DNA from: a virus
Taxonomy: Duplodnaviria > Caudoviricetes
IMG/VR virus record: IMGVR_UViG_3300044841_000118
Coordinates: 1-60,317 of that record
Length of the DNA: 60,317 bases
Direction: 5' to 3' (one strand)
Of this stretch, positions 6,712 through 58,624 are shown piece by piece; position 1 is the stretch's first letter, and each line of letters begins with the position of its first letter. The position numbers and the translations under genes are program-made. The notes below the pieces were generated by a model that had not been told where the DNA came from, did no database searches, and saw nothing but the letters and a program-made list of their open reading frames with translations.

Positions 6712-7165
6712 GCCCCGCACCCCGGCGCAGCAAGAGCGCGACACCGACCTCCGGCTCCGGCGCACCTACGGCATCACGCTCGCCGAGTACAACGAGCGAC
6801 TGGCCCAGCAGGGCGGCGGGTGCGCCATCTGCGGGAAACCCGCCGCGACCAAGCGCCTGCACACCGACCACTGCCACAAGTTCTCGAAGCTGTTCAAGAT
6901 CGCCCGGTTCAAACTGAAGCACGGTGGGTACCACGCGTCGGCGGAACACAAGACCGACCCCACATCTCGGCTCTTCTACTTCTTCACGGTAAAAGACACG
7001 CGGCAGGAAGCAGTCGCCGAGGTGAAGAAGGAACTGAAGAAACGCAGTGTGAGGGGTATCCTCTGTGCCCACTGCAACCGGGGCTTGCGCTATTACTTCG
7101 ACCGGCCAGAGTTGTTCGTCCGAGCAGCCCAGTACCTCCGCGACTTCGCGGACCGCACCGCATGA
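6695..7165 (+). CDS. endonuclease VII-family protein with internal insertion
   Basis: YGITLAEY...CAICG...HTDHCH...VRGILCAHCN. Confidence 0.85.
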   Translation: MPRKSKPRTPAQQERDTDLRLRRTYGITLAEYNERLAQQGGGCAICGKPAATKRLHTDHCHKFSKLFKIARFKLKHGGYHASAEHKTDPTSRLFYFFTVKDTRQEAVAEVKKELKKRSVRGILCAHCNRGLRYYFDRPELFVRAAQYLRDFADRTA

Positions 7166-12608: not shown

Positions 12609-13805
12609 ATGGCTAACCGAACCTGCACCCTGATGCTCTACTGCCGCACCGAGAACGGGTGGCGCCGCTTCCCTGCCGCCTTTGGCAAGAACGGGCGCAT
12701 CCGGCCCAACTACGCCGAGGTCGCAGGCGAGCAGGTCCACTTCGATACCGCGCGGTACGAGATCCGCTTCTACGCTGGCCGCAAGGTCCAGTTCAAAGCC
12801 GTCCAGGGAAGCGCAAAGGACGCGCTGGCAGCCCGCCGCCGGCAGGAGGCTCTGCTAGTCGCCCGGGACTCGGCCAAGGCCTCTGGGGCCACCCTGGTCG
12901 AGAATGAGCCCACCCGGAAGAAGCTGACGCAGGAGAAGCAGCGCTGGCTTGAGGGGCTGGAGGCCCGCGGAAAAGCCGAGTTCATCAAGACCGCGCGGGT
13001 GGCGATCGACGACTTTCTGGCCGCCACGGAACTGATCTACGCCGACCAGATCACCGCAGACGCCATGCTGGTCTTCTACCGGGTTCTGCGGAAGCGCGGC
13101 AACTCGGCGCGCACCCTCTACAACAAGGTGATCAACCTCTCCGCCTGGTTCAAGGACATGGGGCTGGAGGTCAAGTCCATCGTCAAGCACAAACCGGTCT
13201 ACACAGAGCGGGAGGTCGACGTCTACAGCCCCGAAGAGATCGGCGACCTGTTCCGCGCCTGCCGCAACGACTACCAGCGCGCGCTGTTCGACGTGCTGCT
13301 CAAGGCCGGGCTGCGCGAGCAGGAGGCGGTCAATCTGGAGTGGACGAACGTCGACTTCCGGGCCAAGGTGCTCCGCGTCCGCGAGAACGTACAAACCGGG
13401 TCATCCATCAAGGACCGGGCCGAGAGATCCGTCCCTATGCCTGACAGTCTGATCGAGTCATTGCGCGCCTGGCGGGAGAAAAGGCCCAAGGCACACCTCG
13501 TCCTCGGCACCGCGACCGACCGGCCCAACAACAAGATGCTGCGGACGCTGAAGCGGGTGGTCAGCGCGGCTAAGCTCAACTGCGGTCGCTGCGATGGGTG
13601 CACCACCCGGGACGAGTGCCGCCGCTGGCGCCTGCACAAGTTCCGGGCCACCTACACCACCCGCCTGCTGCAGAACGGGGTCGATGCCCGAACGGTCATG
13701 GCCTACACGGGGCACGCGGATTTAGCGACCGTGCTGCGCTATCTGGCGCCGGCGGAGGACGCCCCGATGCAGTCCAGGATCAGCAGCATCGAATGGGTGC
13801 GGTAG
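12609..13805 (+). CDS. int: tyrosine integrase
   Basis: GLREQE (R), LHKFRATY (HxxR), GHADL...RY. Confidence 0.95.
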   Translation: MANRTCTLMLYCRTENGWRRFPAAFGKNGRIRPNYAEVAGEQVHFDTARYEIRFYAGRKVQFKAVQGSAKDALAARRRQEALLVARDSAKASGATLVENEPTRKKLTQEKQRWLEGLEARGKAEFIKTARVAIDDFLAATELIYADQITADAMLVFYRVLRKRGNSARTLYNKVINLSAWFKDMGLEVKSIVKHKPVYTEREVDVYSPEEIGDLFRACRNDYQRALFDVLLKAGLREQEAVNLEWTNVDFRAKVLRVRENVQTGSSIKDRAERSVPMPDSLIESLRAWREKRPKAHLVLGTATDRPNNKMLRTLKRVVSAAKLNCGRCDGCTTRDECRRWRLHKFRATYTTRLLQNGVDARTVMAYTGHADLATVLRYLAPAEDAPMQSRISSIEWVR

Positions 13806-26147: not shown

Positions 26148-26159
26148 TCGGGGAGGGGT

Positions 26160-26328
26160 GCCGCGCTCTCACGGCTGTCACACCACTTAGCGACCCACGC
26201 AATGCGTGTTTTGGGCGGTCGCTTTATCTAGCAGCAGGTGTCGCTGGATGGGACTCCACCGGGTAGGTTGTTGCGGGTCCGGCTGCGAGGCTCCCAAATC
26301 GCCGCGCTCTGGCGGCCGTCACACCACT
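26160..26328 (-). repeat. 28-nt direct repeat hairpin x2 in a structured intergenic leader
   Basis: 26160-26187 and 26301-26328, 25/28 identical: AGTGGTGTGACRGCCGYSAGAGCGCGGC. Confidence 0.75.
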
Positions 26329-26442
26329 ACGTACTTATCAGGAACGCCCCAAGGTGTCGGGGTCACCGCTGCATCAGTCCCACTCTCAGGCAAACCCGAC
26401 GTGACAGAGGGCGCGAATAGGGGAGCAGCAGCACACTGTCCA

Positions 26443-26478
26443 GAAAATGGAAAGGGCAGGCGAGGAAACGCCTACCCT
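26443..26478 (-). terminator. intrinsic terminator/attenuator
   Basis: AGGGTAGGCG/CGCCTGCCCT stem then TTCCATTTT. Confidence 0.6.
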
Positions 26479-26522
26479 ATTAGATGCATTCTACGAGGAA
26501 ATCGCTCGGCTTTTTCTAGAAG

Positions 26523-34220: not shown

Positions 34221-34943
34221 TTAGAAGGCTCCGCGCCCTTGGCGGGCGGACTGGGCATTGCCCAGGGTTTCCTGCGACTGACGCTGGGTATCCAGCCGGT
34301 CGGAGAGGAAGATGTTGGCTTGCGTCTCGTTCAGGCCACCGTTCGCCGCGATGCTCTGCCGCAGGAACAACTGCATGGCTACGCCGAACCGCTCGTCGCC
34401 GAGATACTCGTACGCTTTGGCGAGCATGCCCTGCGAGCACAGATAGTGGAGGTAGTCGGGGATCGGTGCCCACGTCTGTGACGGTGCTGTGAAGATCGGC
34501 GCCGCGTTCTGCGACGTCACTGTGACGGTGTAGACGCCATCCGGCACTGGGTGTAGGCGGAAGGTGATGTTCCCTGCCCCGTCATCCAGTTGCGCTGAGA
34601 TGTGGACGAGCTCGCCTTGCTGTTTCTCGTCGGCGAGGATCATCTTCACTTCAAGTTCGCGCGCGGGGTTCACGCTCTGGGTCAGATCAGTGAAGGTTGC
34701 TTTCTCGATCCATCCGAAGGTCGCTGCGGACACCGAGTAATCCTGTGTGCCTGCCGCCGTTTGGAAGGTCGTCACGCTCCGGTTCCAGCGCCACGCGAAC
34801 GGTGCCGCGAGCAGAAACTGACGAACCCAGTCCGCGTTGAGCAGAGCCGGGTCGTTGTTGCTGCCGAAGGTCAGCGGCGCGTTGCGCACGAACTGCTGCG
34901 TCAAATTGATCGTGCGCTGGAGAGTGATCGTGGAGGATGGCAT
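34221..34943 (-). CDS. head-tail adaptor (tail tubular A-like), paralogue 1
   Basis: WRWNRS...TAAGTQDY...RLHPVPDGVYTV...PIPD. Confidence 0.75.
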   Translation of the reverse strand: MPSSTITLQRTINLTQQFVRNAPLTFGSNNDPALLNADWVRQFLLAAPFAWRWNRSVTTFQTAAGTQDYSVSAATFGWIEKATFTDLTQSVNPARELEVKMILADEKQQGELVHISAQLDDGAGNITFRLHPVPDGVYTVTVTSQNAAPIFTAPSQTWAPIPDYLHYLCSQGMLAKAYEYLGDERFGVAMQLFLRQSIAANGGLNETQANIFLSDRLDTQRQSQETLGNAQSARQGRGAF

Positions 34944-36632: not shown

Positions 36633-37151
36633 CTAGTTGGCAGCGTCGTAGTATTTGCGGAGCAGCGCGACGTACGCATCTACTCCCGGGTTGCTGGCGC
36701 CGATGTGGCCGCCGTTCCAAAGCTGTCCCCACTGCTCGACCGTCTGTGGCCGGGTGCGCAGGTTCAGTCGAACCAGAAAGTCAGCGGTCGCGCGGGCACA
36801 CTCTTCGGCCTCGCGCAACTGTGTGGGAGCCATGCCGACCGGGCAGTTGATCAGTAGGATTTGCCACGGCCCGTAGGAGCAATGAGCGCTGTGGCCGTAC
36901 ATGGCGGTGAGCCGGACGACTGCGGGGTTGGCGCTGTACAGGCCGGTGCAGTATGCCTTCTCGTGCCGCGGGTGGCAGTTCTTGCCGCCGGAAGACTCCA
37001 TCATGCTGATGGCCTTCACGAGTTTGCGCGGATCCAGGTTGGCCGGGTTGAACGCCTGGAAGAACCGCTCGATCAGGTCTTCCAACTGCGCAGGGGTCAA
37101 CACCGGCCAAGGGCCATCGATGAAGTTCAGGAGAGCCGACTGTACGTCCAT
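36633..37151 (-). CDS. lytic transglycosylase/lysozyme-like endolysin (start may be 37193)
   Basis: MESSGG (catalytic Glu), SYGPWQI, WNGG. Confidence 0.8.
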   Translation of the reverse strand: MDVQSALLNFIDGPWPVLTPAQLEDLIERFFQAFNPANLDPRKLVKAISMMESSGGKNCHPRHEKAYCTGLYSANPAVVRLTAMYGHSAHCSYGPWQILLINCPVGMAPTQLREAEECARATADFLVRLNLRTRPQTVEQWGQLWNGGHIGASNPGVDAYVALLRKYYDAAN

Positions 37152-37452
37152 GAGAGAAAGAGCCGCGAGACCGGTCGCGCCGGGGTGTTGCATCGGCTTG
37201 CCCCGCGTAGTCTCATATCGCCTACCGAACGGACCGAATCAGGTCAGCGCAGTGATTGAGTGGACTCTTCGCGAGCCGGGTGCAATCGACTCCTCACTTC
37301 CGGGCAAGGTCGCGGGGAGTCAAAGCGGGCGGGTGGGGTCTCGAGGCGAGCGGCCCGCGTGAAAGCAGGCCGGATGACGGAATGCCCGTCGAAAGAGGAA
37401 CCCGAATCCCTGGAGATCCGGGGCCGCGCAGCATTACTGCACGGGATGAATC

Positions 37453-37530
37453 TGGCTGGCAGAGTAGGACTCGAACCTACATAGGCCGCATTAACAGTGC
37501 GGTTCTCTGCCCAGATTGAGATATCTGCCA
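37453..37530 (-). tRNA. tRNA-Asn (GTT)
   Basis: acceptor TGGCAGA/TCTGCCA, G73, CCA; anticodon arm CCGCA-CTGTTAA-TGCGG; T-arm GTAGG-TTCGAGT-CCTAC. Confidence 0.95.
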
Positions 37531-37562
37531 GTGTTTGGAGCCCATTCCGAACCCGGGGGTTC

Positions 37563-37984
37563 GAATCAGCTTACCCACTCCGCACGGGCCAGACGTGTGG
37601 GGCTACGCTGCGGGTGCCTATCCCGAAACACTGAACTTCTCGCTCGGGGTTGCAACCACACTCAAACTTATCCCCCGATGCGGTGCCGTCAGGGCCGATT
37701 TGCAGCGGTCTCTGCGGCAGGGGGTCCGGTACATGACCCATATCCGCCCTGCAAGGCGAAACTGCGAGTCAGAGGGAATCCGGAGGCACACTATGGGACC
37801 GTCTCTCCGGCTGCCATGGGATTGTCCTCCCCATCAAGGTCTTCGCGGCCGGCTTGCTCCCAGCTGTCTAGCCGGGTCCATTACGCGAAGCGCCGGGCTT
37901 TTGATCCTGCCGGCGACGGTGAAGCCGAGATGTCCCTCTCGACGGGAGATCCTCGATAACTAGTCGAGGCAGTTAAGCTGACCC
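37563..37984 (-). ncRNA. candidate ~420-nt structured ncRNA, family unassigned
   Basis: 11-bp end-closing helix, many hairpins, promoter box ~25 nt upstream, no minus-strand ORF in the track. Confidence 0.5.
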
Positions 37985-38062
37985 CTGAAGTAGGTGCCGC
38001 TACATACTTAGATGCGATTCTGCATGAAAATCATCACCCTATTTTCGTCCAGAAACTGGACA

Positions 38063-38082
38063 AGCCGCCAGGGTAGGCGGCT
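38063..38082 (-). terminator. hairpin after capsid operon
   Basis: AGCCGCC/GGCGGCT stem directly followed by the GTCC-N7-GGAC site; weak U-tract. Confidence 0.45.
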
Positions 38083-38107
38083 CATTCAGGGTGAGGGTTT
38101 TTGTGGA

Positions 38108-38617
38108 CTAGACCTGGTCGATCGTGAACTCGGTCACGGTCACGCTGTTGGTCGCCAGAGCCGCGCCGAACGTCGCCGAAGCAACGAACTGCAGGCCCGA
38201 CGGATCAACGACACCGGTCTGTGCCGTGGTGGCACCGAACGCCGTCAGAGTGCCATTGGTCTGACCCCAGAACATGCCGTGCACCGTCTGGGAAACAGCA
38301 TCCCAGCTCAGCTGCGCCGTCACGTCGAAGTTACCGCCGGCTACCGGAATGGCTGCGCCGGAGACGGTGAAGGCCGCAACCACGCTGTCACTGGCGAGCG
38401 TCGCGGAGTTGCCGCGATACAGCTTGATCAGCAGGGTGGCAGCAGTTCCGCCGGTGGCCTTGCCGCGGATGTTCACCGCGATCGAGGACACGCGGTTCTG
38501 CGGGGCGAGACCAACGACCAGAGGTGCTCCGACTGCATTCAGAATCGCAGTCTCCGTGGTCGAATTCAGCGCGAACGCTGGATTGTTGTAGATACCAGCA
38601 ATCGTGTTGTTATTCAT
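38108..38617 (-). CDS. capsid decoration/minor head protein
   Basis: follows MCP; beta-rich; A/T/G-rich. Confidence 0.6.
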   Translation of the reverse strand: MNNNTIAGIYNNPAFALNSTTETAILNAVGAPLVVGLAPQNRVSSIAVNIRGKATGGTAATLLIKLYRGNSATLASDSVVAAFTVSGAAIPVAGGNFDVTAQLSWDAVSQTVHGMFWGQTNGTLTAFGATTAQTGVVDPSGLQFVASATFGAALATNSVTVTEFTIDQV

Positions 38618-38706: not shown

Positions 38707-39690
38707 CTAGCTACCGGTCTGGGCCTGGATGCGGCGGTAGGTCATCGTCGCGCCGGGGCGCAGCGTGTTGGTGTACTTCACGTTGTACGACACCCAGCCG
38801 CCAATCTGACGGGCGGGATCGGAAACGCTACCGCTCTGCGGAGCCTCCTGCACCATCAGCTTGTAGTTCTTGTCGCCGGCCGCGTTCTTGCCCAGGAAGA
38901 TCGAGAAGATCGCGTCGTCGCCGAAGACGTAGGTGTTGTACTTCAGGACGGCGTCCACGGTGCCGCTCGGCGCGGTCGTGGTCTGCTTGAACTTCACGCC
39001 AGCAAACTCGATGACGTCGTTCTCGCCCAGGGGTCCGAGCAGCTTTGCACGGTCGCTGTCGCTGCCGCGCTTCAAGATGTCGGTCAGACCGTTCAGGCTC
39101 GTGTCGTTCAACACGTCCCGCACAGCAAACGGGTGGATGATGCCGCCGTAGCCGCCGTCGCTCAACATCGGACGGGCATTGACGTTGGCCAGGGACTGGA
39201 CAGCGCTGCGGATGCCGTTCGCGGTGAGGAAGGTGCCGTTCGCGATGTCGATGTTCACCGAGGAGTCCACGGAGACACCGGCGTCAGCGGTCAGCTGCAC
39301 CAGCTTGTTCAGGGTCAGTGCCAGGCGGTAGGCCAGTTCCTCAGAGAGGCTCTGCATCAGGCCGCCGTCGTCAATCGCAACGTCCATCGCCAGATCAGAC
39401 GAGTTGATGAAGTCAGCGTACTGACCGATCGTCGCGTTGATCGAGGTGGAGGTTTCGGTCACGCCGCTGCCGACAGTACCTTCGGCCGCCTGCGTGGTGT
39501 TGGAGCCCAGGAGGGCGTAGGTGAAGAACTGAACCTGGTTGCCGGACTTGACGGGAAGCGGCTTCTGCTTCGTCATCGACATGAAAGGCGTATTCGCCTT
39601 CAGGTTGGGAATCGACTTCCGCTCGTAGTGGATAGCAACCAGGTTAGGCAGGCTGCCGGAAGTCAGGATGGATGCTGGGGAATAACTCAT
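38707..39690 (-). CDS. major capsid protein (N4-gp56 family)
   Basis: LPVKSG..VQF...EGT...ATIGQYAD...IIHP...DP..QIG.WV. Confidence 0.9.
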   Translation of the reverse strand: MSYSPASILTSGSLPNLVAIHYERKSIPNLKANTPFMSMTKQKPLPVKSGNQVQFFTYALLGSNTTQAAEGTVGSGVTETSTSINATIGQYADFINSSDLAMDVAIDDGGLMQSLSEELAYRLALTLNKLVQLTADAGVSVDSSVNIDIANGTFLTANGIRSAVQSLANVNARPMLSDGGYGGIIHPFAVRDVLNDTSLNGLTDILKRGSDSDRAKLLGPLGENDVIEFAGVKFKQTTTAPSGTVDAVLKYNTYVFGDDAIFSIFLGKNAAGDKNYKLMVQEAPQSGSVSDPARQIGGWVSYNVKYTNTLRPGATMTYRRIQAQTGS

Positions 39691-39726
39691 GGGGAGGCTT
39701 GGTGAAACGAAAGGGATGTGGGGTTC

Positions 39727-40947
39727 TTAGCGCTTGGCAAACTGGCTCTGCCGAATACCAACTATTAGTTGGTCAACTTCGGCATCACTCAATTGGTCAA
39801 GCGACACGGCGGAGGGCGGCTCGTTGGAACTCGGGGCGGGAACGTTGGACGTCTCGCTCGGTCGAATGCCGAAGCCCACTCTCGGCTGACGCACGGCGCG
39901 AGAAGGCGCGGCGGCAGGTGAAACGGGTGCTGCAGGGGTCGGGGTGGGTGCAACTGCTACGGGTGCGGCAGGTGCGGCTGCGGGAGTCGTTGCTACTGCG
40001 GCCGGTCGGACCGGCTCTGCTGGTTTGGGAGCAACAGGCTTCACTTCGAGCAATCCGCTCTCGCGCAAGTCCTCGTATGCTTCATCAAGGTTGCTGACAG
40101 TCCACTCGCCGCTCCGGACCAGTTCTGTAAGGATCTCGTCCTGGTTCTGGGTGGTGAGTATCTTGCCGAGTTTGTGCTTCGCCACATAAGCGACCATCGT
40201 GCTGAAGTTCGCATCGCTTCTGTGGTAGTCCGGATGGCTGGCCACGAATGCCGTAGCAGTCTCCGTAAGTAGTCCTTCTTCACGTGCCTGAACACCGGCG
40301 TCCGCTTGCTGGACAAGGGTCTCGAGGCTACGGCCCGCTCGCTGTTGAATCCATTTCGTCAATGCGGCGTCTGGATTCTGGTCGAACTCGTGCTTGAGGG
40401 CAACAATCTGGTCAGCAGTCAGCGCCTTGGGCGCTACGATCGGCGCGACTGGCACAACCGTCTGCTGCTTGGGGGGAACACCGAGCTTCAATTGCCGGTT
40501 CTGTTCCCGAATCTTTTTGGTGGCGTTCAGTTTGGCGATCGCCAGCTGGTGCCACATCTCGTTCTTCGTGGCGCCGTAGAAGACTTCCTTCGTCGCACCT
40601 GGCGTGCCGAGGTCCAGCGTCGCCTTCCAACCGCGCGAGGTTTTCTCGATCGTGATAGAAGACCCGTCCGGGTTCTCCGTCAACTCGGGGCCTGCTGGCT
40701 CCGGATCTACCTGCACCGCGACGGGTTCCACAACCGGGGCTACGGGCTGAGCGGATGCAGCCACGGCGGCTGCTTCCTCTGCTTCGGCAGCCTCTGCTGC
40801 CTGCTGCTCCGCGAGTTGCTCGGCGGCCAGGGCCTCGATATCGCTCTGGAGGGTGGCGCGCTGGTCGTCGTGCTGAACCCGGGTGAACTCATCATCGAGC
40901 CACGGGTCGGAATGTGGGGCTGCAGGAACTACGGTCGGTGTGGACAT
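39727..40947 (-). CDS. capsid scaffolding protein
   Basis: between portal and MCP; acidic; Pro/Ala-rich; LDQLSDAE C-terminus. Confidence 0.7.
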   Translation of the reverse strand: MSTPTVVPAAPHSDPWLDDEFTRVQHDDQRATLQSDIEALAAEQLAEQQAAEAAEAEEAAAVAASAQPVAPVVEPVAVQVDPEPAGPELTENPDGSSITIEKTSRGWKATLDLGTPGATKEVFYGATKNEMWHQLAIAKLNATKKIREQNRQLKLGVPPKQQTVVPVAPIVAPKALTADQIVALKHEFDQNPDAALTKWIQQRAGRSLETLVQQADAGVQAREEGLLTETATAFVASHPDYHRSDANFSTMVAYVAKHKLGKILTTQNQDEILTELVRSGEWTVSNLDEAYEDLRESGLLEVKPVAPKPAEPVRPAAVATTPAAAPAAPVAVAPTPTPAAPVSPAAAPSRAVRQPRVGFGIRPSETSNVPAPSSNEPPSAVSLDQLSDAEVDQLIVGIRQSQFAKR

Positions 40948-41470: not shown

Positions 41471-43546
41471 CTACAGCGCGCTTCCGGCTCCTGAGCCGCC
41501 CGGTTCACCGGTCAGGGTGATGGGGCCGGCAGATGCTTCAATGGCGTGTCGAAGAACCTCGCGCGCGGCGCGCGCCATATTCTCCTGATCGGCCAGTTCT
41601 TCCTTGCGGTCGAACGAGTGATCCTGCAACTGCTGCATCGCCTGAGCTTTGGCTGCTGCGGCGGCCGCCGGCGAATCCGCCTGCGAGCGTTGCAGTTCTT
41701 CGGGGGTCATATCCACGATGACGTCGTAGTAGTTGCGCCATTCGCTGGTCTCGAAGAACATGCGCAGGACTTCCTGCATATTCACCTTCTTGCCGGCAAC
41801 CATGAGTTGCTGCGTGACCGAAGGCTGGGAGAGGAACTGTGTGATGATCGGCAGCGACTGCGCCATCGCGCGCCGTGCCTGCATCTTCGCTCCGGCAGAG
41901 ATCGAGAAGCGCACTTGCGCGTTCAGAAGATCGATCACCGTGCCGCCTGAAGCCAGATACTCGTGCTCGAGCTCGTCGTTCAGGATGTCGCGAATGCTGG
42001 AGACTGGCAGGAGAGCCTTGTCCATCTCCATTGCACGGAAGACGAAAGGCAGAAATACCTGGGTCGAAAACTTCTCGACGAAATCACCTGTCCGGTTACT
42101 GGACCCGGCTGACAGCAGACTTGCGCCGGCGGCGGTGCGGGCCAGGTTGGAGTGCCCGGAGGCTCCGGCTACACCGGATGTGCCTGCGTCGCCCGCGCCG
42201 GAGACAAGGTCAACTCGTCCCTGCGACATGGAGATGTGGGCTCCGGCTTCGGGAACAGCCGGGGTACGGGGCAGCGGCGCGAAACCGTTGGGCTCGTCAA
42301 CTTCGATGATCTTGCCCGGCGCGATGCGGATGGACTGCGTCGGAACGTTTTTGCCGCGGACGCGGACGAAGACGCCGTTCAGGTTCAGCGCGGCCTGGTC
42401 GAGCCAGACGTTGGTGATGCCCTGCTGCAGCCGCTGCTCGGATCCGATCAGCTTGCCGAGGCCCATGCCGTGGAAGGCTTCGGGCACATCCCACCAGTTG
42501 ACGCTCAGGTAGGGGATTACGCCGTAGGGGTTCTCGGTATTGCAGATGACCAACTTCTTCTGCAGGACGACGATGTATTTGTCGTTGTCCCAGCGCTCGA
42601 GCACTTCGAGCGGCTCGTTGAAGGGGTCAATCGTGGTGGTCTCGTACGCCGGCTTGGCCTGCTGTACGGCGGTGCCCATCGCAGTTTCGACGGACCCGGT
42701 GTCCTGCTCCGGCTCCTCCCGCGGCGGGAAGAAAAGCATGATCAGCTTTTCCTTCGGCGGAATCGTGAAGCCGGGACGATCGCGGAGTTTGTCCAGATCG
42801 TCGAATGTCATGTACATCCGCTCGACGACGTACTTCGCCTTGCGGATGTCGGGCTTGTCCAGCCCGGGGTCAACCATCACGCGGCCAAGGTTGACGATGT
42901 GCTCGAAGAACGGGCGATCGATCTGTTCCTCGACCGGCTCTATTTCAATGTCGTCACTCTCGATGGTGATCGGAGAGGCGTTCGGGTTACCGGTCGGGTC
43001 CGGAATCTGGATAGGCTGATTCGGCCGGACGTACAGTTTGCGCTTGCGGGTGTAAGACTCCCAACCCCACTTCCAGATGCCGGTGCCGTAAAGCGCGGCC
43101 TGGTGAATGCCGAGCCGGCACTCTTCGCGGAAGTTGATGTCTTCCAACTGGAACGCGAGCAGGGCGGACCATGCGCGGGCAGCCTGCGCGGTTGTCTTCG
43201 GCCGCTGCTGCACCATAAACGGAGGGGACTCGTAGAAGAGCCCGTTCATGATCTGGGGCACCAGTCCGTTGACGGCGGTGGCCAGGGTGTAGAAGGGGAC
43301 GTTGGCGCGCTCAACTTGCGTGCCTTCCCAGTTACGTGTCCCGTAGGGGGACTGGTACAGGGTGGAGGCGACGGTCCAACCGTTCACCCACTGCTTTGAC
43401 TTCTCATATGACTCAGCGCGCGCCGCGTCCTGCACCACCATGCGAAGCGCAGGGTCGTCGTCCCACACTCCCGTGCGGAGGAACTTCTTCGCTTCGTCTG
43501 GAGTGAGAGGGGCTTGCGGGTTGGGGCTTTTGGTCTCGAGCAGCAC
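41471..43546 (-). CDS. portal protein
   Basis: LYGTGIWKWGW, VDP, NPYG..PY, FHGMG, RTAAG; podoviral portal. Confidence 0.9.
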   Translation of the reverse strand: MLLETKSPNPQAPLTPDEAKKFLRTGVWDDDPALRMVVQDAARAESYEKSKQWVNGWTVASTLYQSPYGTRNWEGTQVERANVPFYTLATAVNGLVPQIMNGLFYESPPFMVQQRPKTTAQAARAWSALLAFQLEDINFREECRLGIHQAALYGTGIWKWGWESYTRKRKLYVRPNQPIQIPDPTGNPNASPITIESDDIEIEPVEEQIDRPFFEHIVNLGRVMVDPGLDKPDIRKAKYVVERMYMTFDDLDKLRDRPGFTIPPKEKLIMLFFPPREEPEQDTGSVETAMGTAVQQAKPAYETTTIDPFNEPLEVLERWDNDKYIVVLQKKLVICNTENPYGVIPYLSVNWWDVPEAFHGMGLGKLIGSEQRLQQGITNVWLDQAALNLNGVFVRVRGKNVPTQSIRIAPGKIIEVDEPNGFAPLPRTPAVPEAGAHISMSQGRVDLVSGAGDAGTSGVAGASGHSNLARTAAGASLLSAGSSNRTGDFVEKFSTQVFLPFVFRAMEMDKALLPVSSIRDILNDELEHEYLASGGTVIDLLNAQVRFSISAGAKMQARRAMAQSLPIITQFLSQPSVTQQLMVAGKKVNMQEVLRMFFETSEWRNYYDVIVDMTPEELQRSQADSPAAAAAAKAQAMQQLQDHSFDRKEELADQENMARAAREVLRHAIEASAGPITLTGEPGGSGAGSAL

Positions 43547-43613
43547 GAAGGGAGGGGGTAGAACGTTCGGGTAGCCGGCTCATGCGGGTATGCGCGCGCC
43601 GGCTACGCTCGGA

Positions 43614-44316: not shown

Positions 44317-44396
44317 GCGGACAAGGGTCCGCTCAAAGAGCCGTATAACAGATTAGATGCAAATTACCTTGGTTTCGTTCACAAAATATTTTGTGT

Positions 44397-46382
44397 TTAT
44401 CCCCACATGCCGCCACCGAGGATGCTCGGCATACCAGGGCTCGGGGTCTCCGCATAGCACTCCGGCTCCGGCTCGAGGATTTCCTGAATCATCTGCATCG
44501 GGTTGCCCATACCAAGGCGCCCAAATGCATCCGCCGGCATCTCGCTCTCGGTCAGGTACGGTCCGTAGAGCAGGTTGTACTCCGGATCGATCACCACCTG
44601 CTGATCGCGCGGCGTGTCGGAAGCGGCAAGTAGCATCTGCGGAGCGTACCGCGGCTGCTGCGAGATTACGTCCGGGATGTCGTTGTGGCCAGAGTTGGAC
44701 AGGCAACGCTCGAACTCGTCGTAGAGGGTCTCGAGATGTGGCAGGTAGTTCGCCAGTTTCAGGCGGTCGTGGACGAACCAGGAGTGTAGCGCCGCCATCC
44801 GGATCTTCTTCGCACCCTTCTGGTTGTCCGGTGTGAACCAGTCGATACGCGCGCAGATCGAAATCACGTACGGGTCGTTCGTCGCCCGGGCGTGCATCAT
44901 GATCGCGGTGTGGATGAGCTCGGACCCGGCGGCTTTCTCGATGCCGATGATTGACGGCTTCCACTTCCGGGCGAACTCAACCACGGCCTTCGCCAGGTCA
45001 TCCGGCTTGTACCTCTGGCGCAACAGATCATGCACACACATGGTGCCGTCCGGTTTCCAGACGACGGAGGCCGCCGTGCTGAAATCCCGATTCTTCTTTT
45101 CTGAGAACGCGAAGTCCCACACCTGGGTGATCACGCCGCGCTCCGGCATATCGGTCGGCGGGATGGTGTTCTTCAGCAGCAGCGGGCGATCGAAGGTGAC
45201 CTCCGACGCTGGCCGCGGATTCTGGTTCATCTGCCCTTCGAAGAGGGCTTCGTCCATGGACAGGATCTCCATCAGGTAGGAGAAGTCCATGTACTTCGGC
45301 ATCAGGAACACGCATCCATCCGGACCGGCTTCCTGATACGTCACCGCTCGACCTTCCTGCTCGAGCTTCGCCACAACTTCTGGCTTTATCTGGACGGCCT
45401 TCGCAATGAGGATGAGACTCTTCGCTGCCCGGTTCGTCGTCAGAACCCAGCCAGGGCCACGCTCCTCCTCCACCACACCGACGCTGTTGATCTCGATCTC
45501 GCGGCCATGATGGTCGGCGTCGTGGTAGCGCGTGCCGATGTCGTCGAAGTACCCTTTTGGGACAAGCGTGCGCTTACGAAGGATGATCGCCTTCGAGACC
45601 TTCTTGCACTGCTCTTCGTTCTCGGAGTTGCGGTCAGAGACTCCGTCGTCCGTCTTGATGAGCTCGAAGTGCCAGCCGGCCGCGGTCGAGGTGACCGACG
45701 ATGCGAAGACGGTAGGCTCTTTGCGCTTGATCTGCTTGGCTGCCCACACGGGGCAGGTGAACTCGAACTGGTTGCCGAGGTTCTTCTCCTCTACACAGAA
45801 CTCGGGGAAGAAGAGGTTCATCATTGTGGGCGCGTCCGTCTTGATGACGAAGTGCCCCTTCAACTCGTCGAGCAGACCCATGGCGAGGTCGTCGGCGGCG
45901 GTCAGGAACCAGATGCGGATGGCCGGGAAGTTAAGGATCCACTGGACCGCGTCGATCACGTCACACGTGGACTTGAGCCCGCCGCGGGGCCAGAGTAGGA
46001 CGCGCGTCTTGAACTCGCTCTGCTCGAGCATTGGCTTGCTGTCGTCTTTCTGGACAAACAGCTTGCGGCACATCACCCCGTGACTCTCTTCGGTAATGCG
46101 GTTGTCGCTGATCGGCTTCCACCCTTCGTGGTGAGCCATCGTCTCCCAGCAGAAGAACCCCGCGAGGAAGATCAGGTCCTGCTTCGAGCGGCGCCGCACT
46201 TCTTTCCCCAAAGGGGAACTGGGGATCTTGTCGACCCCCAGCTTGGCGAAATTGATCAGGTCGGGCCGGAACGAGTCGAGGAACCCGTAGAGCACATCGT
46301 TTGGAATCGCTTGCGCGGACCCGTACGACTCGATCATCTCCTGGAACGGGTTGCTTTCCGTTGTCGTGTTACTGGACACCAT
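44397..46382 (-). CDS. terL: terminase large subunit
   Basis: PRGGLKST, GWHFELIKTDD, IGTRYH, WDFAFS..DFS, IGIEK, HNDIPD. Confidence 0.92.
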   Translation of the reverse strand: MVSSNTTTESNPFQEMIESYGSAQAIPNDVLYGFLDSFRPDLINFAKLGVDKIPSSPLGKEVRRRSKQDLIFLAGFFCWETMAHHEGWKPISDNRITEESHGVMCRKLFVQKDDSKPMLEQSEFKTRVLLWPRGGLKSTCDVIDAVQWILNFPAIRIWFLTAADDLAMGLLDELKGHFVIKTDAPTMMNLFFPEFCVEEKNLGNQFEFTCPVWAAKQIKRKEPTVFASSVTSTAAGWHFELIKTDDGVSDRNSENEEQCKKVSKAIILRKRTLVPKGYFDDIGTRYHDADHHGREIEINSVGVVEEERGPGWVLTTNRAAKSLILIAKAVQIKPEVVAKLEQEGRAVTYQEAGPDGCVFLMPKYMDFSYLMEILSMDEALFEGQMNQNPRPASEVTFDRPLLLKNTIPPTDMPERGVITQVWDFAFSEKKNRDFSTAASVVWKPDGTMCVHDLLRQRYKPDDLAKAVVEFARKWKPSIIGIEKAAGSELIHTAIMMHARATNDPYVISICARIDWFTPDNQKGAKKIRMAALHSWFVHDRLKLANYLPHLETLYDEFERCLSNSGHNDIPDVISQQPRYAPQMLLAASDTPRDQQVVIDPEYNLLYGPYLTESEMPADAFGRLGMGNPMQMIQEILEPEPECYAETPSPGMPSILGGGMWG

Positions 46383-46656
46383 CGAGGCCGCGTTCCTTGC
46401 AGTTGTATGGGCCGGAGCATCCGGGTAGCGTGCACTTGACTTCGTTCTGATCGACGGCGCAGTCGGACGGCTCAGGCTGAGGCGACGCAGAGACAACGCT
46501 CTTCGCCCACGCTGCCGCGAACTCGTTGACCGCGACCTTGCGCGCGGTGTTCAGCGCGTCGACCACATCGTTCGCGCGCACCAGCGTCGACTTGCCGTCC
46601 TTGAAGACGATGTTGTAGAGCTTGGACCCGTCTGGTGTAGCTGGTGAATACCCCAT
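46369..46656 (-). CDS. hypothetical protein
   Basis: coupled to neighbours. Confidence 0.6.
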   Translation of the reverse strand: MGYSPATPDGSKLYNIVFKDGKSTLVRANDVVDALNTARKVAVNEFAAAWAKSVVSASPQPEPSDCAVDQNEVKCTLPGCSGPYNCKERGLDGVQ

Positions 46657-49366: not shown

Positions 49367-49507
49367 CGGCTGTCACGGGGCTTGCAAGGATTTGCACCTG
49401 TCGGCGCGGGGTGCGCCTATTCGAGCGCCAGGGAGGCGCATCTCGAGACCAGCTTCGCCTCAGAAGAGACGGAGCCTAAAGCTCAAACCACGCATGGTGG
49501 GTGAGAC

Positions 49508-49635
49508 ATTCTGCGGGCAGGGCTTGATACCTGCTCAGGCTTGACCCGATATGGAAGTAGCCACCCTTGCGGGACGTCGGGCTCGTCTCATTCCTGCCTA
49601 GAGCGCAGGCGTGTCCATCCACGCCGCCGCAGAAT
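49508..49635 (-). ncRNA. tRNA-like RNA with non-canonical middle arm
   Basis: 9-bp stem ATTCTGCGG/CCGCAGAAT; D-like GCGT-GGATGGAC-ACGC; T-like GCAGG-TATCAAGC-CCTGC. Confidence 0.55.
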
Positions 49636-49640
49636 CTTTG

Positions 49641-49955
49641 TTACCGCATCACGTTGTAGGTGTCGCGGTATGGCGCGAGGTCCATCCAGACCTCCAGCGC
49701 ATCGTTCTCGACCCGTTCGCGTGTGATCGCGGGGTCGCCGTTCTGGAACTCTTCGAGATCCGCGAGAGCGTTGTGGTAGGCAACCTCGGCCTCGGTGAAC
49801 GACACATCGCCTTCGTGGTCGACGCGGATCTTGTGGATCAGCACGCGGTCGATGCGTAGGTCATCCGCGATGTGGCGGGCGAACACGACGTCGGACTTCG
49901 AGGAGGCGAGAGCCGGAAGAGCCGAGAGGAGCAGGACCGCGAGCAGCTTCTTCAT
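49641..49955 (-). CDS. small secreted protein
   Basis: GGAGG RBS; MKKLLAVLLLSALPALA|S. Confidence 0.7.
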   Translation of the reverse strand: MKKLLAVLLLSALPALASSKSDVVFARHIADDLRIDRVLIHKIRVDHEGDVSFTEAEVAYHNALADLEEFQNGDPAITRERVENDALEVWMDLAPYRDTYNVMR

Positions 49956-50124
49956 ACGGCCTCCGTGAACTATGGAGCAATCAGGCGGGGGAGCATCCCG
50001 CATCTAGTGGCCGCCGACATGTCGAGTGCCGCTCATCTTGCATTAAACGACCGATCGCATGTTGCGGTGTGTGCAGCCCTCCCACCGCGAGAGGCTCGTA
50101 ACGTGAGGTCTCCGCTGCTGCCTT

Positions 50125-50283
50125 TTAGAACCAATCCCACGTACCCCAGTGCCGGTGGCTCCTGGGTATCTGGGGCTCTTCCTTCTTGGTCTCGCGCTTT
50201 GCCCGGCGCCGATCGATGCGGTTCCAGATGCGCTTCAGTACCGATGGCGGTCCGCAGCCCTTCGATTTCCGAGTACGCGACAT
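50125..50283 (-). CDS. small basic protein (52 aa)
   Basis: MSRTRKSKG...RIWNRIDRRRAK...WDWF. Confidence 0.55.
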   Translation of the reverse strand: MSRTRKSKGCGPPSVLKRIWNRIDRRRAKRETKKEEPQIPRSHRHWGTWDWF

Positions 50284-50287
50284 CGGG

Positions 50288-50437
50288 CTACTTGCCCTTG
50301 ACCTTCTTGAGCGCCGGGTTCTTGCGCTTCGCGGCGGGGCTAGCGTTGCGGGAAGACGAGGCGAGGATCGCGCCAGCGGCCTTCTTGCTCACGCCTTCCT
50401 TCTTGGAAATCTTGTTCTCGACACTCTTGAACGACAT
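50288..50437 (-). CDS. small basic protein (49 aa)
   Basis: MSFKSVENKISKKEGVSKKAAGAILASSSRNASPAAKRKNPALKKVKGK; GGAGG RBS. Confidence 0.7.
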   Translation of the reverse strand: MSFKSVENKISKKEGVSKKAAGAILASSSRNASPAAKRKNPALKKVKGK

Positions 50438-50593
50438 TTACCGACCTCCGACCTTCATGGCGATGTCAACCAGAGCACGGACGTTCACCCGCTTGCCCTG
50501 CTCTGCCAGTTGCTTATGGAACTCGGGGGAGTCCAGGCAGTCGGCTAGGGTCGGGAGGGCACTGCGGAGCAGCTGCTTGGTCTCCATATCCAT
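50438..50593 (-). CDS. hypothetical protein (51 aa)
   Basis: AAGGA RBS; abuts neighbours. Confidence 0.55.
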   Translation of the reverse strand: MDMETKQLLRSALPTLADCLDSPEFHKQLAEQGKRVNVRALVDIAMKVGGR

Positions 50594-50750
50594 CTAGTCC
50601 TTCTCCTTGTCGAACTCGTGGCCGTCGGCGTCTATGGTGCTGGGGTCGTTGACGCGCGCAACAGAACTGGATCCACCACCGCTGGTCTTGATTCGCATAC
50701 TTACTTAGATGCGTAATCCCTATGGTATTTACGCGCGGCATTTGGAGATT

Positions 50751-53489: not shown

Positions 53490-53752
53490 AGGGAAATACC
53501 GGGCCGGCAGTCTCAATCTGGGCGAACCTGCCACTTTCGTCCGCAGATCGCGTGTAAATTCCTCCGCGTTTTCTGCCTCTAAGTGATTAGACGCAAAAAG
53601 CATGGGGCAATTGACAAGTATATTTTCAGGCCGGCCGTGGTCTGCCTGAGATTGGGTGCAGTTCGTGCGGTTCCGGCGTGTCCAGTTTCTGGACACTGGC
53701 TTGTGTGGCGCGCGCGTAGCCAAACTTTCATCACATACACACACTTTACGTG

Positions 53753-56925: not shown

Positions 56926-57210
56926 ATGCACTGCCCCATCTGTTACGAACGAAGCAAGGGACAAGGAGCGCGGCCGCTCCGGCGCAGCATCGGCAGGGTG
57001 GCCGCCGAATCCCTGAACCGCGCATCTGAATCCGCTATGCGAAATCTGACCAGTCCAGTTTCTGGACACATAGGGGTGATGGACGCGCGTAGTGCGGCAC
57101 ACGCAGCAAGACATCTGGAGATAGAAGCGCCGGCGCGGTTTGCCTATCTCCTTCCAGACTCCCCCGAGGGGGTGGGCCAGTTATTTTTGAAACGAACGGA
57201 GGCTGTATGA
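56926..57210 (+). CDS. hypothetical protein
   Basis: CPIC start; coupled to next gene. Confidence 0.5.
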   Translation: MHCPICYERSKGQGARPLRRSIGRVAAESLNRASESAMRNLTSPVSGHIGVMDARSAAHAARHLEIEAPARFAYLLPDSPEGVGQLFLKRTEAV

Positions 57211-58517: not shown

Positions 58518-58624
58518 TTACTGCGCATCCAGTTTCTGGACAGCCAGCTGATTCTTCGGCCCACCCCAAGATAGTTCCGAACCGGAATCATCACTTAGGG
58601 CGTCGAGATTGATCAACGAGGCGG

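Follow-up and report, generated by a model that had tools for sequence, protein, structure and literature searches.

A candidate long 5' leader in front of the tRNA-Asn gene of an uncultivated soil phage

Gene order at the tRNA-Asn locus

The window, meaning the whole stretch of DNA analysed, is an IMG/VR soil virus record of 60,317 bases that is estimated to be 56% complete. The minus-strand genes from about 14 to 50 kb constitute a podovirus-type structural (head) module. On this strand the terminase large subunit (44397-46496) and an SU10-type portal (41471-43546) are followed by a 406-aa gene without family that occupies the position of a scaffold gene (39727-40947), the major head protein (38707-39690) and p169, a decoration-like gene of 169 aa (38108-38617, stop codon at 38108-38110). 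An SU10-type adaptor is located further downstream (34221-34943, minus). An integrase is encoded at 12609-13805, which suggests that the phage is temperate. To our knowledge, the phage group has no cultured member.

A 956-nt gene-free gap (38107-37152) separates p169 from p186. Read on the minus strand, the order is the p169 stop codon, two hairpins, a GCATCTAA box, a leader of about 470 nt, tRNA-Asn, a trailer of about 300 nt and p186. The leader (37531-37998, minus) has no codon signal and no excess folding, and it is hardly conserved. It contains the region 37563-37984 (minus), which an earlier note had proposed as a structured RNA of about 420 nt. The tRNA-Asn (GTT; 37453-37530, minus) was found by ARAGORN, reaches 59.7 bits in Rfam as a tRNA, carries an encoded CCA end and begins 33 nt downstream of the 3' end of this region (37563). 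On the 3' side of the tRNA, a terminator-like hairpin (37401-37422, minus) followed by TTCCTCTTTC is predicted both in this phage and in the relative described below. The hairpin is followed by a T-rich tail, and about 250 nt of further non-coding sequence extend up to p186 (36633-37151, minus). The likely true start of p186 is the ATG at 37151 (172 aa), not 37193. Its conservation with the relative locus L027 sets in at M15. A near-identical strain has lost 2 nt at 37152, which fits a non-coding position. No family match was found for p186.

A capsid protein search of IMG/VR gave 91 confirmed relatives, and the best 80 of these 91 loci were used. Among the loci retrieved, the same gene order was found in one contig only, IMGVR_UViG_3300046543_000819 (G001, with the loci L027, L133 and L152). 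Its homologues of p169 and p186 share 48% and 65% identity with those of the window, and L027 carries a tRNA-Trp together with a tRNA-Asn.

A promoter-like box recurs between late genes

The first of the two hairpins behind p169, GAGCCGCC-TACCCT-GGCGGCTT (38062-38083, minus), starts 24 nt after the p169 stop codon and probably marks where the transcript of the upstream head genes stops. At the corresponding position, the relative carries a hairpin with a T-run behind it (TTTTGTGCTG). The second is the palindromic hairpin GTCCAG-TTT-CTGGAC (38047-38061, minus), a motif that is recurrent in this phage. The same 15-mer is found again at 53680 and 57053 on the plus strand, and with one change at 58527 (plus). 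On the gene strand, the recurring loop reads TTT, and ATAGGG(G)TGATG follows the copies at 57053 and 38061. This motif could be a terminator or a regulatory hairpin.

The hairpins are followed by a promoter-like module (37999-38046, minus), which contains the GCATCTAA box at 38008-38015 and GTA.GTAGC at its end, and which is conserved with L027 6644-6690. The box occurs four times in the window (26480-26487, 38008-38015, 44353-44360 and 50705-50712), in all four cases on the minus strand and between late genes. The expected number is 0.84 copies, and four copies were reached in 2 of 100 shuffles. G001 also has four copies, on the gene strand and in the same gene order, and their flanks are conserved pairwise between the two phages. 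Most copies have an A-rich run and GATTT(T/C)C upstream. No sigma-70 consensus was found at the box. The earlier note had named a promoter box at 38008-38015; its presence is confirmed and its recurrence added, while its putative role as a promoter is drawn only from recurrence, position and synteny. A DUF3800-IX match at 38025-38099 falls on this module and not on the leader; it is weak (22.6 bits versus a gathering score of 36.8) and was rejected.

The leader matches no known RNA family

When the whole window was searched with Rfam 15 at gathering scores, the tRNA was the only match, in agreement with the earlier note, which had left the region unassigned. Relaxing the threshold to E values up to 10 gave no relevant match over 37200-38300. 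GOLLD (RF02032, gathering score 150 bits) had no match in the window at that score and none at E up to 10 when the whole record was searched. ROOL (RF03087, gathering score 99.1 bits) likewise had no match in the window and none at E up to 10, although the direct ROOL search is weak when taken alone, as the model matched none of 14 control genomes either. That the leader could not be matched to GOLLD or ROOL thus holds for both covariance models. A tmRNA was rejected, as ARAGORN found only the tRNA-Asn and Rfam gave no tmRNA match. Retron-like a1/a2 ends were also rejected; there was no reverse transcriptase among the 50 ORFs scanned.

The setting itself resembles that of the large phage RNAs. 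GOLLD and ROOL are often located close to tRNAs and in prophages (PMC5737381). The leader likewise belongs to a virus record, lies within the head module and has a tRNA just downstream.

Like GOLLD, the leader is a large non-coding stretch in a phage that adjoins a tRNA; unlike GOLLD, it has no match to the model and no conserved multi-stem architecture. It shares with ROOL (581 nt on average) the phage and near-tRNA setting and a broadly similar size, but it has no match to the ROOL model, and its consensus fold with the only homologue amounts to just -7.4 kcal/mol.

The leader folds no better than shuffled sequence

All the sequence elements and helices named in the earlier note were located on the minus strand. 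The internal helices CCTCGA/TCGAGG, CGCCGG/CCGGCG and ATGGG/CCCAT are present, and so is CTTCGCG/CGCGAAG, which encloses CCGGCT/AGCCGG. The terminal helix is formed by GGGTCAGCTTA at 37984 and TAAGCTGATTC ending at 37563. It has 11 bp with two G-U pairs, as confirmed by script, and is the only ungapped helix in the leader with at least 11 bp and at most two G-U pairs. This helix exists, but it does not exceed chance: when the dinucleotides of the 470-nt leader were shuffled, 60 of 200 shuffles contained a helix of this kind. The boundaries proposed for the RNA of about 420 nt are set by this helix and are not supported, since 30% of shuffles contain one. When the whole 849-nt non-coding stretch was folded, the terminal helix was dropped.

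The minimum free energy (MFE) of 37563-37984 is -169.1 kcal/mol, compared with -167.8 ± 6.1 kcal/mol for shuffles (z -0.22), and 42 of 100 shuffles fold as well. Both parts of the leader behave in the same way. The 5' half, folded as 37796-37984, gives z -0.02 (106 of 200 shuffles as good), and the 3' part gives z +0.26 (117 of 200 shuffles as good). In contrast, local perfect stems of at least 6 bp are more numerous than in shuffles (9 versus 4.0 ± 1.95), and only 7 of 300 shuffles reach 9. Four coding stretches of equal length from the same phage contain 8, 2, 7 and 3 such stems. The excess of short stems is therefore a property of the genome and not specific to this region, and the named helices are mostly not more than chance gives.

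The leader is non-coding, as judged from its codon-position GC and stop codons. GC is flat over the three codon positions (0.58-0.67), whereas the flanking genes have a GC3 of 0.76-0.86, and each of the six frames contains at least one stop. Two plus-strand ORFs, 37516-37959 and 37535-37963, were considered and rejected; neither has a family, and the GC3 of 37516-37959 is 0.58.

The leader is hardly conserved in the only homologous locus

When the 477-nt leader was compared with the whole of G001 by BLAST, only 44 of its 477 positions aligned, in a piece of 18 nt with 100% identity and a piece of 26 nt with 85% identity. The 18-nt piece is the hairpin GCAGCCGGAGAGACGG with its flanks, and the 26-nt piece is ATAGTGTGCC with the letters that follow it. 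These two motifs stand in a different order in the two phages. RNAalifold of the alignable part of the leader with G001 gave -7.4 kcal/mol and 22 pairs, in helices of 2-5 bp. The 5' part of the leader (37815-37984, minus; 170 nt), which holds most of the named local helices, was found in this window alone and has no counterpart in G001, in the phage collection or in 145 loci. In contrast to the leader, the trailer and a second leader at 26 kb are 73-80% identical between the two phages.

Wider searches did not add a homologue of the leader. Neither blastn in distant mode with 37300-38200 against 50,697 phage records nor blastn with word size 7 against the 80 major head protein (MCP) loci matched it. 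The leader found L027 only when nhmmer was run against these 80 loci (E 0.015), and L027/L133 only, plus two tRNA-only matches, when run against 145 loci. Pattern scans of IMG/VR returned 65 stretches for the 16-mer of the hairpin, of which only L133 was similar beyond the 16-mer by nhmmer. They also returned 6 stretches for ATAGTGTGCC..CCCTCTG (5 unrelated) and 4 for an 18-mer of the trailer (3 unrelated). With p186 as anchor, IMG/VR gave one locus, again on the G001 contig, and metagenome contigs gave 230 pattern matches with none confirmed. The trailer pattern gave 15 stretches in metagenome contigs, with unrelated and mostly coding flanks. A candidate trailer relative, L166, shared three short pieces that were judged to be chance.

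These data bear directly on the proposal that the region is one discrete, functional and structured RNA, about 420 nt long and comparable to GOLLD or ROOL, lineage-specific and fast-evolving. The region is a non-coding stretch of several hundred nucleotides in a phage, with a tRNA next to it and a recurrent promoter-like box upstream. Its local stems exceed those of shuffles, and one strongly conserved hairpin lies inside. Against this stand an MFE at shuffle level, a terminal helix at chance level that is lost in the larger fold, a lack of Rfam matches at gathering score or at E up to 10 that includes ROOL and GOLLD, and the lack of the 5' 170 nt with most named helices from the only relative. 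The part shared with this relative consists of two short motifs without a common structure. Neither conserved structure nor covariation was found, as far as two sequences can tell, the test with one homologue being weak. We consider such an RNA unlikely, and the proposal of the earlier note is not supported in this form.

The locus lies in a tRNA-bearing region of related phages

Among the best 80 MCP-relative loci, 43 were scanned for tRNAs, and 11 of the 43 contained them. In the three relatives read closely, tRNA arrays with Thr, Ala, Pro, Trp, Tyr and Asn are located downstream of the capsid gene (L004 1536-2217, L009 6419-7785 and L012 2378-3361). The gaps between these tRNAs contain small ORFs with ribosome-binding sites, one of them with CxxC pairs, and a conserved promoter-like stretch is found upstream of the arrays. 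Because the relatives carry differing tRNA sets and arrays at the same place, the locus appears from these comparisons to be a variable tRNA island.

Contigs from two soil runs agree with this reading of the locus. They match the trailer with few differences and diverge from the window past 37397 and 37395, respectively. Contigs from four soil DNA runs leave 37536-37951 uncovered. In one of the diverging contigs, the first 30 letters resemble the post-tRNA hairpin, but with an altered stem.

The leader could be the decayed remains of a tRNA and small-ORF island, or a swapped cassette, without function as RNA or DNA. The divergence of near-identical strain contigs at the edge of the locus, the almost complete lack of conservation with G001, and the contrast between relatives with up to five tRNAs plus small ORFs and a window with one tRNA all point in this direction. 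However, a tRNA pseudogene or decayed array was not detected: none of the 17 tRNAs of relatives aligned better to the leader than to shuffles (highest z 0.94), and no second Rfam tRNA copy was found at E up to 10. Tblastx against 178 loci gave a single match with E below 0.01 (E 7e-4, 28 aa, opposite strand), and the 18-nt identical hairpin argues for some function. Decay to a functionless remnant is in our judgement very unlikely.

A GAGAG-loop hairpin is shared by two late leaders

The hairpin GCAGCCGGAGAGACGG (37799-37814, minus), which has a GAGAGA loop, is identical in the relative over 18 nt including its flanks. Since this identity is embedded in otherwise unalignable sequence, it indicates that at least part of the leader is likely to be functional. 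The earlier observation that the hairpin is related to a repeat at 26.2 kb was correct: GCCG..GAGAG..CGG occurs at 26161, 26302 and 37799, in all cases on the minus strand. The family is also present in G001, where one copy precedes tRNA-Trp by about 14 nt. According to our comparison of the copies, the stem bases vary and the pairing is kept. The hairpin is probably a binding or processing signal.

The copies at 26 kb belong to a second gene-free leader of 375 nt (26148-26522, minus), which starts with a GCATCTAA box and lies upstream of a 1184-aa gene. It contains two copies of a repeat of about 30 nt (..GTGGTGTGAC.GCCG..GAGAG..CGGC), has no Rfam match and is 73-80% identical to G001 42320-42783.

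The hairpin is also relevant to whether the 3' half of the leader encodes a small basic protein, with the remainder acting as its 5' UTR. The conserved motif ATAGTGTGCC (37785-37794, minus) contains a GTG (37791) that opens a possible ORF of 57 aa ending at 37618 (37618-37791, minus), for which the coding evidence is weak. In L027, a 45-aa ORF (6757-6894) opens at the same conserved GTG, and the frames of both phages stop shortly before the next conserved block. GC3 is the highest of the codon positions in both phages (0.69 and 0.70) but stays below the 0.76-0.86 of the neighbouring genes. A local protein score of 29 was obtained, which 44 of 1000 shuffles reach, whereas the in-frame pair ties with one out-of-frame pair at 31. 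A tblastn search of L027 with the 57-aa product gave no match at E ≤1e-3, and the two products differ in length and have few residues in common.

The surroundings of the GTG point both ways as well. The GAGAG hairpin ends 6 nt before it, and 12 nt separate the end of the copy at 26161 from the ATG of the 1184-aa gene; in L027, however, the hairpin precedes tRNA-Trp and not a start codon. Small ORFs do occur between tRNAs in relatives. The missing Shine-Dalgarno sequence is uninformative, because several late genes of this phage have none. Taken together, a small protein from this frame seems rather unlikely.

The trailer is better conserved and better folded than the leader

The trailer between tRNA-Asn and p186 (37152-37452, minus) is 74-78% identical to G001. 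Its conserved and structured core (37162-37347, minus) is closed by a 10-bp helix of 37337-37347 with 37162-37172. Compared with shuffles, the trailers of the two phages fold at z -2.27 (1 of 100 as good) and z -2.72 (3 of 200), and independent MFE folds agreed in their hairpins and in the long closing helix. The consensus of the two reaches -65.9 kcal/mol with 56 pairs, 15 of which are changed on both sides. A coding control matched in length and similar in identity reached -46.05 kcal/mol with 62 pairs, 10 of them changed on both sides; its z values were -1.18 and -0.11, and its folds differed between the phages. Given these energies, pairs and z values of the control, the excess structure of the trailer is real but moderate.

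A 1-nt indel shifts the frame within the conserved trailer block by our own reading of the alignment, which argues against coding. Near-identical strains show seven differences in the trailer: five in unpaired columns, one from G-U to A-U, and one insertion in the weakest helix. A covariance model of the core (37158-37351) was searched against 83 sources (733,954 bases), in which only the two training phages scored. The trailer may be read as a structured 5' UTR of p186 or as a processed tRNA trailer.

The better conserved and better folding piece of the locus is thus the trailer on the other side of the tRNA and not the leader that had been singled out.

Discussion

We consider it somewhat probable, with a little better than an even chance, that the stretch is the long and fast-evolving 5' leader of a small unit composed of the promoter-like box, the leader, tRNA-Asn and the terminator-like hairpin. 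The leader is on the tRNA strand and between the box and the 5' end of the tRNA, and no gene intervenes. Transcription would begin a few bases past the GCATCTAA box, at about 38000, and the transcript would cross about 470 nt of non-coding RNA into tRNA-Asn. RNase P would then cut at the 5' end of the tRNA (37530) and free the leader as a by-product. The larger part of this sequence would drift or be swapped freely and would not keep one conserved fold. The GAGAG-loop hairpin would be under constraint, and the lineage would reuse it in another late leader. A counterpoint is that short local stems are somewhat enriched, though two of the four coding controls reach 7-8.

In bacteria and phages, RNase P and RNase E remove the leaders and spacers of pre-tRNAs; certain spacer fragments function as small RNAs, such as the 3'ETS of leuZ in E. 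coli. The stretch resembles a pre-tRNA leader in being non-coding, in lying on the tRNA strand from a promoter-like element to the 5' end of the tRNA, and in being poorly conserved except for short signals. It differs in being, at about 470 nt, far longer than usual; in bacterial tRNA operons a tRNA leader of this length is unusual. By analogy, an ordinary pre-tRNA leader would be the closest functional counterpart, of which the present one would be a much longer version.

A second comparison can be made with lambdoid phages, in which the late promoter PR' is followed by 6S RNA and tR', and Stx phages carry tRNA genes just downstream. The likeness is in the series of a recurrent late promoter-like box, a long untranslated leader, a tRNA, a terminator-like hairpin and a downstream gene, and it is meant as an analogy only. 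Unlike in lambdoid phages, the locus is within the head/tail module, and neither a Q-like antiterminator nor a qut site was identified.

In a more far-reaching proposal, the whole 956-nt locus (38107-37152) would be a dedicated RNA-producing unit. A precursor driven by a phage-specific promoter would be cut by RNase P and RNase Z to release the tRNA, and two non-coding RNAs would result: a fast-evolving 5' RNA of about 470 nt with a conserved, protein-binding GAGAG-loop hairpin, and a conserved and structured 3' RNA of about 190-300 nt. This combination, products included, is unlikely. If it were true, the leader would be a lineage-specific large non-coding RNA, for example a decoy or sponge, and not junk, and it would evolve too fast for two sequences to show its fold. 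The host of the lineage would probably be an acidobacterium.

As a pre-tRNA leader, the reading we favour, the stretch is not a new kind of thing: it is a long non-coding leader before a phage tRNA, and a fold of 420 nt is unsupported. What may be worth keeping is the promoter-like box in four syntenic places of two phages, the GAGAG-loop hairpin reused in two late leaders and, between tRNA-Asn and p186, the conserved element of about 190 nt that folds well. Box, hairpin and trailer are modest leads, but they make late gene control accessible to testing in a soil phage lineage that is uncultivated.

Among reference genomes, the closest capsid relatives are on two contigs of Acidobacteria metagenome-assembled genomes (MAGs), JAOAPI010000069.1 (L159) and PMYF01000740.1 (L160), with 72% and 66% identity. 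The MAG with the 72% relative is labelled Candidatus Sulfotelmatobacter. These two were the only loci obtained from genome contigs with the capsid protein, and the non-coding locus is absent from both. They give a hint, and only a hint, that the host of the phage group is Acidobacteria.

Three further features of the phage group were observed. The minus-strand stretch 49367-50704, the 1.3 kb that follow the GCATCTAA box at 50712, contains only short sense-strand ORFs of at most 120 aa and could be either a further long leader or a group of small genes. In many relatives (L030, L034, L037, L038, L044, L047-L052 and others), the capsid match spans 1200-1400 bp for at most 327 aa, which suggests that the major head gene carries insertions such as introns, inteins or homing elements. 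Directly 5' of the starts of the head protein, portal and 1184-aa genes, CCTCCCC-like pyrimidine runs (39691-39700, 43547-43560 and 26148-26160, minus) replace the Shine-Dalgarno sequence. Several other late genes likewise have no Shine-Dalgarno sequence, and the integrase and p236 have GGAG.
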